DNA of 12,643 nucleotides from a virus. Taxonomy: Duplodnaviria > Heunggongvirae > Uroviricota > Caudoviricetes. Below, in pieces: positions 2,249 to 7,937 of this stretch (positions within the stretch are counted from its first letter, which is position 1; every line of letters starts with the position of its first letter). The stretch is from the IMG/VR virus record IMGVR_UViG_2778261064_000023. One strand, given 5' to 3'. Both the position numbers and the translations under genes were made by a program. The notes below the pieces were generated by a model that was not told the DNA's origin, did not search any database, and saw only the letters and a list, made by a program, of their open reading frames with translations.

Positions 2249-2478
2249 AATGGCCTCCTGCATAGCAATGCGCCGTAGTTCCTCACACCACGGCATTGAT
2301 AGTTTTTATCCTTTAGATTCTATGCCGCGTTGCTGTAATTCTTTGCGGATTATTCGCTTTATCCAGGCTGCAAGAGAATCATCGCCGTCCTGTTGTTGTG
2401 CTTTTTCCATCTTTTCCCGTAAGTCAGGATCTAAACGGAACTGGAACGGAGGATTACCACGCCTTTCGCTTTTGTGTG

Positions 2479-2536
2479 TTGACACGTCAATTACACCTCA
2501 TGTAATGTATTTATGTGTAATTACACATTACACACA
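2479..2536 (+). promoter_or_regulatory. Sigma70-like promoter (TTGACA, 18-nt spacer, TAATGT) overlapped by three ATTACAC operator half-sites including the palindrome TGTAATTACA
   Basis: TTGACA 2479-2484; TAATGT 2503-2508; AATTACAC at 2489-2496 and 2519-2526, ATTACACA at 2528-2535; palindrome 2516-2525. Confidence 0.4.
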
Positions 2537-2553
2537 ATCAGAGCAAAAAGTAA

Positions 2554-2585
2554 AGCCCTGCAAGTGTCGGTACCACTGGCAGGGC
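2554..2585 (+). other. Imperfect hairpin (GCCCTGC ... GCAGGGC) in the leader of the 2624-3923 operon; possible attenuator, RNA element or protein-binding palindrome
   Basis: Inverted repeat read from sequence, lying between the promoter and the first start codon. Confidence 0.3.
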
Positions 2586-2623
2586 CTCTAACCACCAACG
2601 ATAGCAGAAGTATCGAGGTAGCT

Positions 2624-3163
2624 ATGAGAAATCATACCACACACCCGCAAGGGCGGGACTCGCACAACCTGAATAAAGCGGGTATGAAAAACCTGTTGAT
2701 CGCCACTGCCAGCCAGGGCTATGATTTACCCGCACCAGCAAAATCTGGTGCCGGGATTGGCGTCCTGGTATTTAACGAAGCGCACAACACGCGCCCTGCG
2801 TGTTTTTTTGTGCCGGATAGTCACACCTTATCAATGGTGGGCTGTATGGGGGCGGAGCAATCCGCGCCGGGTTCTTCGTTAACCGGTTACGCCAACCCTG
2901 TACAGTCCACCGCCAGCGAAATTGGCGTTTCCTGCGGTGGGTTTATTAAACCTAACGAAGAGGCTGCCAACATGGCTACTACCCCTACCCTTGTACATTC
3001 TCAAATTGCCTTTATCTGGCGCTTTATCATCTTTGGCGCGTCAGAGTCCCAAATCATCCACGTCACCGCCTGGACGGAACGCGAAGCGCGTAACCATTGC
3101 CCGTCAGGTTGTGTCGCTGTATTCGCCGCCCGTATTCGTCAGGGGGTACGCTATGTGCAATAA
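2624..3163 (+). CDS. Hypothetical protein (179 aa), first gene of a four-gene operon upstream of the primase
   Basis: ATG at 2624 preceded by GAGG at a 5-nt spacing; the ORF extends upstream to 2513 but that part overlaps the promoter/operators; stop overlaps the next start. Confidence 0.5.
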
Positions 3164-3383
3164 AAACACGCCGGACGCAGCAGGCGAAGCACTGAAAGTA
3201 CTGATACATGCGCTTGTGGATATAAATTGCATGGTAGAGATCATGGAGAGGAAATCACAGTCGGAGTACGACAAAAGAAAATTTAAAACAATAAAAATAA
3301 TTACCAAAAACTCGCTGACAAAAGCTACAGGCATCCTCAATGAGGACACTAAAAGAATCAGGGAGAAACTGTGTGATGCATAA
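3153..3383 (+). CDS. Hypothetical small protein (76 aa), translationally coupled
   Basis: ATG at 3153 preceded by AGGGGG; overlaps the previous stop (3161-3163) and the next start (3376). Confidence 0.5.
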
Positions 3384-3603
3384 AATACCTTTTGATGTTC
3401 TTATTCATTCTGAGAATGCATTAATCCGCGCAAAGGAAATGGAGGCATTATTACTTAAGTTAATGGAAGTGCCGGAAAATGGCGATGAATCATATCCCAT
3501 GATGTTTTCTGCCGTGCACACATTATTAACGCCAGTAATTAATGAATTAAATACGGTGATGGCAATTCACGAGAATAATAAAGCGCATCACACCGGAGAA
3601 TAA
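3376..3603 (+). CDS. Hypothetical small protein (75 aa), translationally coupled
   Basis: ATG at 3376 preceded by GGGAGA; overlaps the stop of the upstream ORF. Confidence 0.5.
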   Translation: MHKIPFDVLIHSENALIRAKEMEALLLKLMEVPENGDESYPMMFSAVHTLLTPVINELNTVMAIHENNKAHHTGE

Positions 3604-3608
3604 AAACC

Positions 3609-3923
3609 ATGAAACAGAAAAATTCTGGCTTTACTGCCAGCGGCCCCGCTCGGCCTGAAATCCGCCCAGGCGATATTTTCAAAGATAAATATGGTGGACG
3701 AATAACGATAAAAACCGTTGACGATTTTCGCGTGACTTATATCCGCGAAGGTTATGCGCATCCCTGCGTGTCGTCTCATATGCGTTTTGAGAGTGAGTTC
3801 ACCCTGGTAAGTAAAGCGCCACCAGCAGAATTAAGCGACATCGACAGAATCATGCGCGTTACAGGAATGGAACGCATTAAGGCAGTACGTGAAATTATTC
3901 GTGAACGGGGAAAGGCAAAATGA
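3609..3923 (+). CDS. Hypothetical protein (104 aa), stop overlaps the primase start (ATGA)
   Basis: ATG at 3609 preceded by GGAGA; stop 3921-3923 overlaps the ATG at 3920. Confidence 0.55.
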   Translation: MKQKNSGFTASGPARPEIRPGDIFKDKYGGRITIKTVDDFRVTYIREGYAHPCVSSHMRFESEFTLVSKAPPAELSDIDRIMRVTGMERIKAVREIIRERGKAK

Positions 3924-6064
3924 AACTGGCACCGAACGTAAAAAAACAGCCTCGCGGAATAAAAAACAAAGACACAGAGGTAATTATTTTCGCGGGTAGT
4001 GATGCCTGGTCGCATGCACAACAGTGGCAGGAGAAGGACGGTCCCGCATCCGGCGATAATGTGCCGCCTGTGTGGCTTGGGCCAAATCAGCTTGCCGAAC
4101 TTGATGCGCTGAAAATTGTTCCGGATGGAAAAAAACGCGTAAGGCTGTACCAGGCCGGAGAACTGGATTTAGTGGAGATCAAAAAGATTGGTCAGAAGCT
4201 GGCGGCGGCAGATATTCAGGATGCGAATTTTTACCCTGAAGGAATGCACGGCCAGAAGTGTGAAAACTGGCGGCGCTATCTGAACGTTGAGCGTCAGAAT
4301 CTTTCTGCAGATCTGGTAATTAAGCTTCCGGTAAAGAAAAAAGCCACTACAAGCCCGGGTGATGATGAATTAAAGCCCCGCGTTGAAAGTCGCGCCGATG
4401 GTGTTTTCTGGGTAACGCCCAAAGTGGATAAGCAGTCAGGAGAAATTATCCGGCCTGAGACGTGGTTATGTTCTCCGCTTGAACTACTGGGAACTGGCAC
4501 GATTGGTAAAGAGCATTACCGCGTGATGCGCTGGAAAAAGCCAGCAAATCATGAAGTCATCACAATGGCGATTCCGTGCGGTGGCATTGGCGACCGTGAC
4601 GGCTGGCGGCTACTGAAAGACCACGGACTGAACGTAACAACCAACGGCAAATACAGGGCTATCCTGGCTGACTGGATGCAGTTAAGCGGAAGCCATGAGG
4701 AATGGCAGTTAAGCACAACAACGGGCTGGCATTTTGGCGCGTACATCATGCCGGACGGTTCGGTCATTGGTGAGTCTGAAAAACCGATTCTGTTTACCGG
4801 AAAAAGTGCCGCTGTTAATGGCTATTCGGTTGCGGGTACGGCGGAGGGCTGGCGCGACTGCGTGGCGCGGCTGGCTGGTGGCAATCCGTCCATGATGCTG
4901 GGTGTTGCCACGTCACTGGCAGCACCTTTGATTGGCCTTGTTGGTGCGGACGGCTTCGGGGTACATCTTTTCGAACAGTCATCGGCAGGGAAAACCACCA
5001 CGCAGAACATCGCATCAAGTTTATGGGGAGAGCCGGACGCACAACGGCTGACCTGGTACGGCACGGCGTTAGGCATCGCCAACGAGGCAGAGGCACACAA
5101 TGACGGGCTTTTACCCCTGGATGAAATAGGCCAGGCCGGAAACGCGCGGGAGGTGTCCACATCGGCTTATACGCTGTTTAACGGTTCCGGGAAATTACAG
5201 GGAGCGAAGGACGGCGGCAACCGGGAGATCAAACACTGGCGAACTGTGGCAATCAGTACCGGAGAAATGGACGTTGAAACATTCCTCAAAACGGAGGGGA
5301 TAAAAGTCAAGGCGGGGCAGCTTGTCCGTCTGCTTAACGTGCCGATGGAAAAAGCCACGCAGTTTCACGAATACAGCACCGGAAAGGCACACGCAGACGC
5401 GTTAAAGGATGCCTGGACAGCAAATCACGGGGCGGCGGGTCGTGAATGGGTTAAATGGCTGGCAGACCACCAGCAGGAGGCAAAGGACACGGTAAGGGCA
5501 TGCCGTGAACGGTGGCGCAACCTGATACCGGAGAGCTACGGCGAGCAGGTACACCGCGTGGGTGAGCGTTTCGCCATACTGGAGGCCGCGCTTGTGCTTT
5601 CCGGTCATGTTACTGGCTGGGATGAGCAGGAATGCCGCGATGCCATTCAGCATAATTTTTATGCCTGGGTGAAGGAATTCGGTACGGGCAACAGGGAACA
5701 CAGGCAGATTATTGAACAGGCTGAGGCGTTTCTTGCGGCCTATGGCCTGAGCAGGTTCGCCCCTGTCAATTATGACCCTGCCAGCCTGCCGATTTCAGAA
5801 CTGTACGGCTACAGGGAAAGCGACGGACGTTATGACGAGCCTGTTTTGTTTTACGTGCTGCCGGAGCCGTTTAGCTCACATGTGGCGAAGGGATTTAACA
5901 AGGATGCCGTAGCAAAGACCCTTCATGAAGCCGGAATGCTGAGAAAACCAGCCTGCGGGCGGGGATGGCAAATCAGGACACCACGACTAAAACACCTGAA
6001 AGGGGCGCGGCTAAGAGTGTATGGCCTTTTGCTGACACAGGACCACGATGCTGAAAATGATTAA
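3920..6064 (+). CDS. Satellite replication protein: primase/helicase (P4 alpha-like / D5-type NTPase) with Walker A motif
   Basis: 714-aa ORF; P-loop GVHLFEQSSAGKTTTQ; size and position (after alpA, before iterons) match PICI pri-rep / P4 alpha; iterons immediately downstream. Confidence 0.8.
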   Translation: MKLAPNVKKQPRGIKNKDTEVIIFAGSDAWSHAQQWQEKDGPASGDNVPPVWLGPNQLAELDALKIVPDGKKRVRLYQAGELDLVEIKKIGQKLAAADIQDANFYPEGMHGQKCENWRRYLNVERQNLSADLVIKLPVKKKATTSPGDDELKPRVESRADGVFWVTPKVDKQSGEIIRPETWLCSPLELLGTGTIGKEHYRVMRWKKPANHEVITMAIPCGGIGDRDGWRLLKDHGLNVTTNGKYRAILADWMQLSGSHEEWQLSTTTGWHFGAYIMPDGSVIGESEKPILFTGKSAAVNGYSVAGTAEGWRDCVARLAGGNPSMMLGVATSLAAPLIGLVGADGFGVHLFEQSSAGKTTTQNIASSLWGEPDAQRLTWYGTALGIANEAEAHNDGLLPLDEIGQAGNAREVSTSAYTLFNGSGKLQGAKDGGNREIKHWRTVAISTGEMDVETFLKTEGIKVKAGQLVRLLNVPMEKATQFHEYSTGKAHADALKDAWTANHGAAGREWVKWLADHQQEAKDTVRACRERWRNLIPESYGEQVHRVGERFAILEAALVLSGHVTGWDEQECRDAIQHNFYAWVKEFGTGNREHRQIIEQAEAFLAAYGLSRFAPVNYDPASLPISELYGYRESDGRYDEPVLFYVLPEPFSSHVAKGFNKDAVAKTLHEAGMLRKPACGRGWQIRTPRLKHLKGARLRVYGLLLTQDHDAEND

Positions 6065-6089: not shown

Positions 6090-6379
6090 GTTGTCCCAGT
6101 CGTCCCAGTAAGCAACAAGCAATCGTAACACATTGAATTACATATATTTCACTTACAAAAAGTGGGACAACAGCGGGACAATATTCAGGCATTTTGGGAC
6201 AACATAGCGGCATTTTGGGACGACACGACATGTATTTTTTACCGTGCTGGAGGGTGGGACAACACAAAAAACCTCATGTCGTCCCAAAATCGCCTTATGT
6301 CGTCCCACTTTGTGGAGTGTGTTTTTAATAAAATCAACAGGTTAACATTAAGTGGGACAACCGGGACAACTGGGACGAC
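6090..6379. repeat. Iteron-type replication origin: at least 11 copies of (T/C)GGGAC(A/G)AC in both orientations, flanked by AT-rich stretches
   Basis: Copies at 6090-6098(-), 6099-6107(-), 6163-6171, 6174-6181, 6195-6203, 6216-6224, 6255-6263, 6278-6286(-), 6299-6307(-), 6353-6361, 6362-6370, 6371-6379; TATATATATA at 6386-6397. Confidence 0.7.
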
Positions 6380-7116: not shown

Positions 7117-7653
7117 ATGACAACGCTGACCATTAACCGAAAACCGAAAGGCATTTACGGCACGCAGTCAGAAACGACGCAGGCGGCACAGCAGCAGGAT
7201 AAAACCACATCGGCGCATAAAGTGATACCCGGCAATCAGAACGCACAGCAGAGCCGCAAAGGGCAGCCCACAGGGGTGACACCGTGGCGGCATATGACCA
7301 AACGCCAGCGCAAAAACCGCAGACGCGTTAACCGCCTTATTGAGCTGTGGCCTGATTTATTCAGCCGGGAAACACCGAAGCCGCTTAAGGTGGGGATATT
7401 CGACGACCTGATGCAGGATCTCGCCGTCAGGGGGCTGGCATTCGGGCCAGGGGCATTACGTGCGACGCTGGCATCTTATGCGCAGTCTCCGCGCTATTAC
7501 CGCGCCTTAATGGCTGGTGGTGCACGTTACGACCTGAAAGGCCAGCCATGTGGGGAAGTGACACCACAGGAACAGCAGGAGGCAGAAACGCGGCTGGCAG
7601 CACTGAATGAAAAGCGCAAACGTCAGGCGACAAAGGAGAGGACAGGCGCATGA
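7117..7653 (+). CDS. FinO/ProQ-domain RNA chaperone-like protein with Gln-rich N-terminal extension
   Basis: Residues about 60-178 align with the E. coli ProQ N-terminal domain as recalled (PLKVGIFDDL vs PLKIGIFQDL; RYDLKGQPCGEV vs RVDLDGNPCGEL); RBS GGGGAAGG upstream. Confidence 0.7.
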   Translation: MTTLTINRKPKGIYGTQSETTQAAQQQDKTTSAHKVIPGNQNAQQSRKGQPTGVTPWRHMTKRQRKNRRRVNRLIELWPDLFSRETPKPLKVGIFDDLMQDLAVRGLAFGPGALRATLASYAQSPRYYRALMAGGARYDLKGQPCGEVTPQEQQEAETRLAALNEKRKRQATKERTGA

Positions 7654-7937
7654 TTCGTGACAGCAAAGCGGAAGAACTGGAGACTAAAGGCCTGTACCGG
7701 AGAGCGGCGGCGCGGTGGGCTGAGGTCATGCAGCTGGTGAACACCGATAAGGAGCGCGAACAGGTGGCAAAGCGTCGCGCGGAATGCATCCGCAAGGCAG
7801 CACGCCCACCCGTTATGGCGGATAACTTCGGGGCGCTGAAAGAGGCTGTAAACCGCACTCATGCGGTGATGGGGATGGAAGACGCGGGTAAATCCGTCTG
7901 GCGGAACTACCCGAAGCAGCCTGGCAGCAACCAGTGA
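7650..7937 (+). CDS. PerC-family transcriptional regulator
   Basis: 95-aa product starting MIRDSKAEELETKGLYRRAAARWAEV, matching the PerC/Pch N-terminal signature KAEELE.KG.WRRAA.RW; start overlaps the upstream stop (ATGA). Confidence 0.75.
   Translation: MIRDSKAEELETKGLYRRAAARWAEVMQLVNTDKEREQVAKRRAECIRKAARPPVMADNFGALKEAVNRTHAVMGMEDAGKSVWRNYPKQPGSNQ

Follow-up and report, generated by a model that had tools for sequence, protein, structure and literature searches.

A probable immunity and early-control region with a P4-type antisense RNA in an Escherichia coli phage-inducible chromosomal island

The 12,643-nt stretch of DNA analysed here (the window; IMG/VR record IMGVR_UViG_2778261064_000023) carries a compact block at 2479-3923, directly upstream of a primase gene. 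We consider it likely that a Gram-negative phage-inducible chromosomal island (PICI) has its immunity and early-control region here, and that the replication genes of the island are governed by two stacked controls, a ribbon-helix-helix (RHH) protein acting on operator repeats and an antisense RNA of the P4/P1 type. The region is of a known kind: its RNA part belongs to the C4/CI family and its proteins to the Ash, Icd-like and DUF4222 families, all with scores above the curated thresholds. A first-pass annotation of the block had described a plain operon of four proteins, none of them assignable to a family. The four tightly packed open reading frames (ORF1-ORF4; 179, 76, 75 and 104 aa) are indeed present on the plus strand, with overlaps of 11 nt and 8 nt followed by a gap of 5 nt, and the last is coupled to the primase as proposed, overlapping the DUF927 start at 3920 by ATGA. 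The rest of that description gives way: ORF1 matches Phage_ASH and the Icd-like family and holds the Rfam elements isrK and C4, ORF4 is a DUF4222 protein, and ORF1 further encloses a second promoter, two small RNAs and an intrinsic terminator. The annotation is corrected accordingly, in that the 'ash family pseudogene' or '179-aa protein' is largely an RNA locus. The features of the block are listed below (SD, Shine-Dalgarno sequence).

2306-2485, minus strand: gene of a divergent RHH (Arc-like) regulator, 59 aa, GTG start
2479-2508, plus strand: upstream promoter, -35 TTGACA (2479-2484), 18-nt spacer, weak -10 TAATGT (2503-2508)
2486-2537: operator repeats, GTCAATTACAC (2486-2496) in the promoter spacer, GTGTAATTACAC (2515-2526) and ATTACAC (2527-2533)
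2555-2601, plus strand: leader hairpin (2555-2585, 12-nt arms) and tail UCUAACCACCAACGA (2587-2601)
2624-3163, plus strand: ORF1, Eta/Ash-like frame, 179 aa, SD GAGG at 2615-2618, spanning both RNA elements and ending as the Icd-like protein
2678-3013, plus strand: cassette of 112 codons, in frame in an icd-like gene; it holds the internal promoter, isrK, C4 and the downstream targets, and supplies a new SD and ATG
2696-2725, plus strand: internal sigma-70 promoter, TTGATC, 18 nt, TATGAT
2732-2808, plus strand: isrK / P4 seqA-like small RNA
2786-2804 and T run, plus strand: intrinsic terminator
2830-2917, plus strand: C4 / P4 CI-like antisense RNA
2922-2963, plus strand: downstream target sites, UUGGCGU (2922-2928) and UAACGAAGA (2953-2961), running into the icd SD GAGG (2960-2963; icd ATG at 2972)
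2972-3163, plus strand: Icd-like protein gene, 63 aa, nested in the ORF1 frame directly after C4, annotated by PGAP
3153-3383, plus strand: ORF2, 76 aa
3376-3603, plus strand: ORF3, 75 aa
3609-3923, plus strand: ORF4, 104 aa, DUF4222
3920-6064, plus strand: DUF927 primase/helicase

The RNA cassette begins with an internal promoter that matches the scan consensus at 9 of 12 positions and lies directly 5' of the isrK match. It is kept at the same position in the related loci L006-L009; in L003-L005 and P4 the position holds TTGCCT followed by TATTCT, TATGCT or TATAGT (TTGCCT...TATAGT in P4), and because the same place is occupied in P4 we take this promoter as the equivalent of P4 PLE. The isrK element scores 80 bits in Rfam (RF01394; cut-off 50), above its gathering threshold, and ends in the intrinsic terminator found by the terminator scan, so that it has a promoter and a terminator of its own. 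A second Rfam model, c4-a1b1, reaches 44.5 bits at 2719-2771 on the plus strand, just below its cut-off of 46.7. The C4 element is a full-length match (RF01695; 75.3 bits, cut-off 45) and folds into a long outer stem round two hairpins. Its 27 base pairs are preserved throughout seven homologues (100% of cells paired), with 11 of the 27 altered on both sides, a level of covariation matched by none of 500 shuffles.

Within this fold, two segments are placed for pairing, the hairpin loop at 2872-2882 (UUCUUCGUUAA) and the single strand at 2889-2895 (ACGCCAA). Each finds a partner on either side of C4: the loop is complementary over nine nucleotides to 2772-2780 in isrK and to 2953-2961, and ACGCCAA over seven to 2757-2763 in isrK and to 2922-2928. 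The target words, TTGGCGT and TAACGAAG, have no further occurrence in the window. The predicted duplex of C4 with the downstream target has an energy of -30.6 kcal/mol, compared with a shuffle mean of -19.2, and is reached by 5 of 2000 shuffles; across the C4/target duplexes, the energies are equalled in just 4-5 of 2000. In the loci compared, the loop and target words read as follows.

Window: C4 loop CGUUAA; target word UUAACG
L003: C4 loop CCGUAUGC; target word GCAUACGG
L005: C4 loop CCUUUUGC; target word GCAAAAGG
L006: C4 loop CCUUUGAC; target word GUCAAAGG
L007: C4 loop CUUCAGUGU; target word ACACUGAG
P4: C4 loop CCUGUGAA; target word UUCACAGG

In all six, the loop and both of its targets change together. 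No other evidence speaks as strongly as this three-way covariation for functional C4 pairing, which would set the specificity of immunity. The downstream copy of the target, moreover, abuts the GGAGG or GAGG of icd in every locus compared. A further complementarity lies between the two downstream targets, where GCGGUGG (2934-2940) can pair with CCACCGC (2907-2913), the 3' strand of the C4 outer stem. This pairing also co-varies (UCACCACC/GGUGGUGA in L003, CCGCCACC/GGUGGCGG in L007 and CUAUCGCC/GGCGAUAG in P4) and suggests an alternative hairpin that would present the UUGGCG site in its loop.

Work on antisense immunity of the C4/CI kind in P1 and P4 goes back to about 1990. In the immI region of P1 and P7, a repressor-controlled promoter is followed by a1b1, c4, a2b2, icd and ant, and C4 pairs with the sites flanking it and thereby controls icd and the genes behind. 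The Rfam models C4 and c4-a1b1 are built on this family, and the window shares with immI a C4-yielding transcript driven by a repressor-controlled promoter and C4 sites on both sides, the downstream one at icd. The two differ in that P1/P7 have the repressor C1 and Ant behind icd, whereas the window has a small RHH protein, an additional internal promoter and, behind icd, small ORFs, an RgdR-like gene and the primase.

The likeness to P4 (NC_001609) is closer. Its Rfam matches lie on one strand in the same order as in the window, isrK at 8615-8692 and C4, which is the CI RNA, at 8420-8507; the equivalence of C4 with CI and of isrK with seqA is stated in earlier work (PMC3632133, PMC4825925), and matches of both Rfam models in 'Bro zones' of several Gram-negative PICIs were reported in 2023 together with a summary of the P4 eta/kil mechanism (PMC10111431). 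The order and strand of isrK/seqA, C4/CI and Icd/Kil, the Ash-family frame lying over them, the internal promoter just before seqA, the downstream target abutting the kil/icd SD and the position of the unit upstream of a replication gene are common to both. Since P4 thus gives the same RNA and protein families in the same order, we read the region as one of immunity. The differences are in the surroundings: the gap from isrK to C4 is 21 nt in the window and 107 nt in P4; P4 has a Vis/Delta-controlled promoter, PLL, after a co-oriented alpA/vis gene where the window has the divergent RHH gene and operators; the replication protein is DUF927 rather than alpha; and the window block is without homologues of epsilon, orf151 and DUF5375. 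The positional analogy with P4 drawn in the first-pass annotation thus stands for the immunity RNA, seqA and the eta/kil homologues and lacks its derepression component, epsilon. Overall, the two-layer design of a repressor-controlled promoter with C4 resembles P1 immI, and the internal promoter with nested frames resembles P4.

The frames nested over the RNAs follow the same pattern. The translation of ORF1 matches Pfam Phage_ASH (PF10554) at residues 36-126 with 57.9 bits (gathering threshold 26; the P4 Eta frame scores 82 bits) and the P4 Eta ORF by BLASTP with an E value of 9e-7, and the Eta-like frame is open in the window, in L006-L009 and in P4. The Icd-like protein scores 59.7 bits on the NCBIfam model phage_ICD_like (NF033153; cut-off 25), on which P4 Kil, the last 65 aa of the Eta frame ("MATTLTPS..."), scores 76 bits. 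Both are members of this family, from which cell-division inhibition is predicted for the window protein. A PDB sequence search with the Icd-like protein returned nothing significant.

Taken together, these elements point to the following arrangement, in which statements on the P4 mechanism draw in part on the summaries in PMC10111431, PMC4825925 and PMC3632133. The RHH protein would act on the operators overlapping the promoter at 2479-2508 as a first control. As a second, the internal promoter at 2696-2725, presumably constitutive, would give a short isrK/seqA-like RNA ending at the intrinsic terminator, and transcripts reading through would be processed, as in P4 and P1, to the C4/CI-like RNA at 2830-2917. 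The two exposed segments of C4 would then pair with the sites in the isrK leader and with those ending on the icd ribosome-binding site, as their complementarity and covariation indicate, and by analogy with P4 and P1 this pairing would block icd/kil translation and lead to premature termination of the untranslated RNA. In the integrated state, expression of ORF2, ORF3, the RgdR-like gene and the primase coupled to it by translation would consequently be off. Derepression of the upstream promoter could provide a bypass of the kind known for P4 PLL and eta: its transcripts would include the good SD and ATG at 2615-2626, and ribosomes starting at 2624 would read the Eta-like frame through isrK, the terminator, C4 and the targets, evading the RNA block and allowing the operon to be expressed.

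The first control is seen at the operators. Four copies of ATTACAC lie within 44 bp, at 2490, 2520 and 2527 on the plus strand and at 2515 on the minus strand, compared with 1.4 copies expected in the whole window on both strands, and GTGTAATTACAC, built from these copies, is a perfect 12-bp palindrome. The divergent protein encoded at 2306-2485 matches a PHROG Arc-like repressor (E 1.9e-6) and, weakly and under the curated cut-off, the NCBIfam family YlcI/YnfO, of which its positional equivalent in L006 is a clear member (59.7 bits). Across loci, these divergent proteins fall into two sequence types, YlcI/YnfO-like or the "...RGIEPKG" type of the window. An unannotated 82-aa ORF (phrog_21027, E 5e-31) lies behind the RHH gene at 2048-2296 on the minus strand.

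When IMG/VR was scanned for the leader tail, TCTAACCACCAACGA, 120 loci (L011-L130) were retrieved, comprising about 95 homologous islands and about 13 chance matches. The homologous loci (about 85-95) have a common order of TTGAC(A/G), an operator in the spacer, a weak -10, a second operator and the hairpin with its tail. When the RHH regulators, called by a simple ORF rule that found none in 28 of the 98 loci scored, are clustered at 85% identity, every cluster carries its own operator word, and at least 15 repressor clusters occur in about 70 related islands. In addition to the window type, GTGTAATTACAC, the cluster-specific words include GTGTTCAACAC, TGTGCGCACA, GTGGGCCACAC, GGTGTACACC, GTGTCTTACAC, GTGGCTGACAC, GGTAATTACC, GGTACGTACC and TACGTACGTA. 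This one-to-one pairing supports an operator-controlled promoter and names its likely repressor; from the co-variation of operator and repressor, the protein at 2306-2485 probably binds the operator repeats and represses the upstream promoter. These specificity classes bear on how Gram-negative PICIs stay silent.

Several points weigh against two stacked controls as proposed here. The upstream promoter, read from the sequence, combines an exact -35 with a poor -10, and the consensus promoter scan did not call it at 2479-2508; we accept it as real because the layout recurs in related loci, which is comparative support rather than support from the scan. The operator-controlled promoter of the first-pass annotation thus holds for the ATTACAC repeats (four, where three had been counted), the recurring layout and the RHH/operator pairing, and is weaker in its -10 and in the silence of the scan. 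For the model PICI EcCICFT073, the activator AlpA, rather than relief of a repressor, is held responsible for induction, and the existence of a repressor was called unclear (PMC6092414). Because the Eta-like frame is not open in L003-L005 or L088, translation through the cassette is not required in all cases; the Eta-like bypass, taken from P4, is plausible and would not be universal. PGAP annotates an "ash family" pseudogene at 2513-2941 next to a separate Icd-like coding sequence (CDS). The parts and their conservation, the complementarity of C4 and its targets and the siting of the downstream target on the ribosome-binding site of icd are features of the DNA itself, and repression, Rho-dependent termination and translational bypass are all carried over from P4 and P1. 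Finally, for the isrK that has been characterised, that of Gifsy-1, the effect on downstream translation is activation and not repression (PMC4825925).

The alternative that survives best, although we consider it unlikely, is the plain four-protein operon whose products would sense or derepress a helper prophage, take over the host or serve as anti-phage cargo. It draws its force from ORF2 and ORF3, which are, judged from sequence, real AT-rich, hypervariable proteins. Both occupy a slot that in P4 contains epsilon and in P1 ant, and GC content is 36-39% across them (3200-3600), compared with 52-57% in the RNA cassette and 45-53% in the flanks, a drop consistent with an exchangeable module. 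Compared with L008, the Icd-like and DUF4222 proteins are 97% identical, whereas ORF2 and ORF3 are 30% and 35% identical, a contrast between slot and flanking genes that is typical of proteins tracking a variable partner and would fit such a role here; the slot holds one to four small ORFs, depending on the locus. ORF2 has a conserved N-terminus (MCN..TPDAA..AL) and an otherwise variable sequence, matches phrog_5146 (E 1e-9) and 23 protein clusters, all 'hypothetical' and from E. coli or E. albertii, and shares 30-51% identity with its positional equivalents; it is without annotation in the genome of E. coli STEC383 despite these homologues. ORF3 matches 85 clusters, all 'hypothetical' and from E. 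coli or Shigella, and is predicted to form a two-helix hairpin (AlphaFold pLDDT 85), for which a comparison with the PDB gives only generic helical hairpins (E > 0.4).

The remainder of the block speaks against such an operon. ORF1 consists mostly of RNA elements and Icd/Kil, and ORF4 belongs to the RgdR family, which is encoded by all analysed E. coli PICIs (PMC6092414). The Pfam family Derepression (PF25738) matches P4 epsilon with 170 bits and none of the window ORFs, which removes the homology basis for the helper-derepression role that had been suggested, and a check of seven proteins against PADLOC-DB gave no match for any of them, which speaks likewise against anti-phage cargo. Profile searches and structure prediction, proposed earlier for each product, thus supplied families for ORF1 and ORF4, and for ORF3 an uninformative helical hairpin. 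Only ORF2 and ORF3 remain as candidates for helper interaction, on their hypervariability and position.

Less probable again is positive control of the IsrK type, in which the short isrK-like RNA would act in trans on the long transcript, opening a ribosome-binding site, or would titrate C4, so that the cassette would be an activator switch. This mechanism has been shown experimentally for Gifsy-1 of Salmonella, where IsrK likewise has a strong model match, its own promoter and terminator, and both a short RNA and a read-through transcript (PMC4825925). The isrK element is the strongest Rfam match in the window, and the short RNA holds both C4-complementary sites and could sequester C4. Gifsy-1 IsrK, however, activates translation of orf45-anrP, whereas the window has other downstream genes and the layout of the repressing P4 type: gene order and the nested eta/kil frames match P4, and in all relatives the icd SD directly adjoins the downstream C4 target, as fits occlusion. 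IsrK-like elements are, in addition, needed to maintain P4-like prophages in S. Typhi (PMC3632133). That the Ash/C4 segment is a decayed, inactive pseudogene left by recombination with a prophage is very improbable, for although the Ash family CDS is flagged by PGAP as incomplete, in this genome as in related ones, and most related islands manage without the cassette, the promoter, the terminator, all C4 base pairs and both target pairs are intact, the cassette features co-vary across lineages, and the 112-codon insert is in frame without stops.

Comparison with relatives also shows how the immunity cassette is placed. In the common, cassette-free form, the leader runs directly into an Icd-like protein of 66-68 aa, which has an 18-aa N-terminus starting with M(R/L) followed by (Y/F)IWRF... 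ORF1 of the window shares these first 18 aa and continues with the stop-free, in-frame cassette of 112 codons, which is followed by the icd core. A covariance model finds the C4 cassette in about 13 of about 95 homologous loci (a regular-expression search missed nearly all of them), and O-island 51 (OI-51) of EDL933 contains neither C4 nor isrK, though the leader hairpin and an Icd-like gene are present. In L014, a near-complete first icd copy, the cassette and a second icd follow one another; from this locus and the cassette-free loci, the cassette appears to have been acquired by recombination within icd. A further trace of such recombination is found in L007 at 2417-2545, where the Icd-like N-terminus recurs in the N-terminal part of the Eta-like frame (IPHLVHTQTAFVWRFLAL). 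In L075, L120 and L124, C4 is present twice, with a strong and a weaker copy separated by about 480 nt.

Homologous isrK-C4 segments with 67-74% identity are also found in P1-like phages, in SfV and in many Stx-converting phages; the SfV cassette, too, lies upstream of a replication gene. The ACGCCAA segment is common to the window, SfV (L132) and an Stx2c phage (L131), and their loops differ. Cross-talk between the RNAs of island and helper is conceivable. In the literature searched, we found no description of the cassette as an optional in-frame insert in icd, of the RHH/operator co-variation classes or of the conserved leader hairpin, nor of any RHH repressor/operator pair of Gram-negative PICIs, and nothing relevant on the function of YlcI/YnfO. 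The window provides a clean, intact PICI example in which each part (two promoters, terminator, RNA, target pairs, nested genes and coupling by ATGA) has a position defined to the base, and the in-frame cassette, the specificity classes, the conserved hairpin and the hypervariable ORF2/ORF3 slot are worth following. A broader and more tentative proposal is that E. coli PICIs have their missing master repressor in the RHH protein with its operators, which would form at least 15-17 mutually exclusive specificity classes, a diversity like that of staphylococcal Stl; ORF2/ORF3 would be the matching helper-interaction module, and the P4-type RNA cassette, captured in frame within icd, would have added RNA control to protein control of a single replication operon.

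At the 3' end of the block, ORF4 matches Pfam DUF4222 (PF13973) with 66.3 bits (threshold 27) and is 48% identical over 71 aa to RgdR of EDL933, which is encoded on OI-51 and regulates motility and type III secretion (PMC3378721, PMC6092414). An RGD motif at residues 20-22 of RgdR is reported to be important for activation of type III secretion. ORF4 lacks this motif: it has R19-P20-G21-D22 where RgdR has MRGD, and most DUF4222 homologues likewise carry RPGD. In every locus examined, the DUF4222 gene shares 4 nt (ATGA) with the start of the gene behind it, and the genes overlapped are of three types, DUF927, a "DNA primase family" protein and a RepA-type helicase, which suggests that its native role is tied to expression of the replication gene. 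The DUF4222 protein shows no similarity to P4 orf151 and nothing significant in a PDB sequence search; a profile search of genome contigs with DUF4222 gave three loci.

Over its whole length, the window matches the chromosome of E. coli STEC383 (NZ_CP091026.1) with 100% identity, at a site adjoining cspD/yljB, and it equals the entire IMG/VR contig IMGVR_UViG_2802429220_000023 (locus L077). Outside the block, it contains the following.

1-1239: integrase
1661-1867: AlpA
Between AlpA and the block, minus strand: two small genes
6195-6307: iteron-like inverted repeats of 34 nt with TGGGACAAC/GTCGTCCCA motifs, just 3' of the primase gene
Downstream part of the island: gene of the single-stranded DNA-binding protein (SSB)
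7117-7653: ProQ/FinO-family RNA-chaperone gene, adjoining the SSB gene
7650-7937 and 12272-12643: two PerC-family regulator genes, the second truncated by the window end
9483-10067, minus strand: Nu1-like small terminase, which with a DUF1441 gene makes up the packaging genes

The primase/helicase assignment follows the PGAP annotation and a Pfam DUF927 match of 161 bits, and the inverted repeats are likely the replication origin of the island. Gram-negative PICIs are defined by int, alpA, pri-rep with ori and packaging-related genes, a length of about 10-15 kb and the absence of structural genes (Fillol-Salom 2018; PMC6092414). The window has int, alpA, pri-rep, ori-like repeats and packaging-related genes, and no structural phage genes. 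The PGAP annotation and the Pfam matches for nine island ORFs include no sid, psu, delta or alpha-type primase, and the island is therefore, by its gene content, a Gram-negative PICI-type E. coli satellite and not a P4-like one, from which it also differs in its Nu1-like and DUF1441 packaging genes; only its immunity cassette is P4-like. With the E. coli PICIs EcCICFT073 and OI-51 it shares int, AlpA, the Icd-like protein, small ORFs, a DUF4222/RgdR gene coupled to DUF927, SSB and PerC. OI-51 also shares the leader hairpin and differs in having no C4 or isrK and in the RGD motif of its RgdR, which is RPGD in the window homologue.

Among the remaining genes, the ProQ/FinO chaperone gene (7117-7653) sits in an island under probable antisense RNA control, and its product might assist C4 pairing. 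Some PerC homologues of PICIs activate the enterocyte effacement locus, or LEE island (PMC6092414), and the host of this island with two PerC genes is a Shiga toxin-producing E. coli strain. A 53-nt inverted repeat, 94% complementary, at 8066-8118 and 11179-11231, flanks the DUF1441 gene, the Nu1-like small terminase and several unassigned ORFs.

The leader hairpin described in the first-pass annotation is borne out by compensatory changes in relatives: eight of nine predicted pairs are preserved through changes on both sides among 21 distinct relatives. It is found in about 95 IMG/VR loci and in EDL933 OI-51 (L010, about 3405-3460), and the tail is invariant across the retrieved loci by construction, since it was the search key. 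An assignment to the R1162 antisense RNA was rejected (Rfam 26.8 bits against a threshold of 55, E 0.37), as was a pairing of CCACCA in the tail with the 5' strand of the C4 stem, because L007 alters the tail and leaves C4 unchanged. In EDL933 OI-51, a 247-aa 'hypothetical protein' (L010, 2706-3449) spans the operator and hairpin region and looks spurious. In the window, a second small stem, CGAUA...UAUCG at 2599-2615, follows the leader tail just 5' of the SD.

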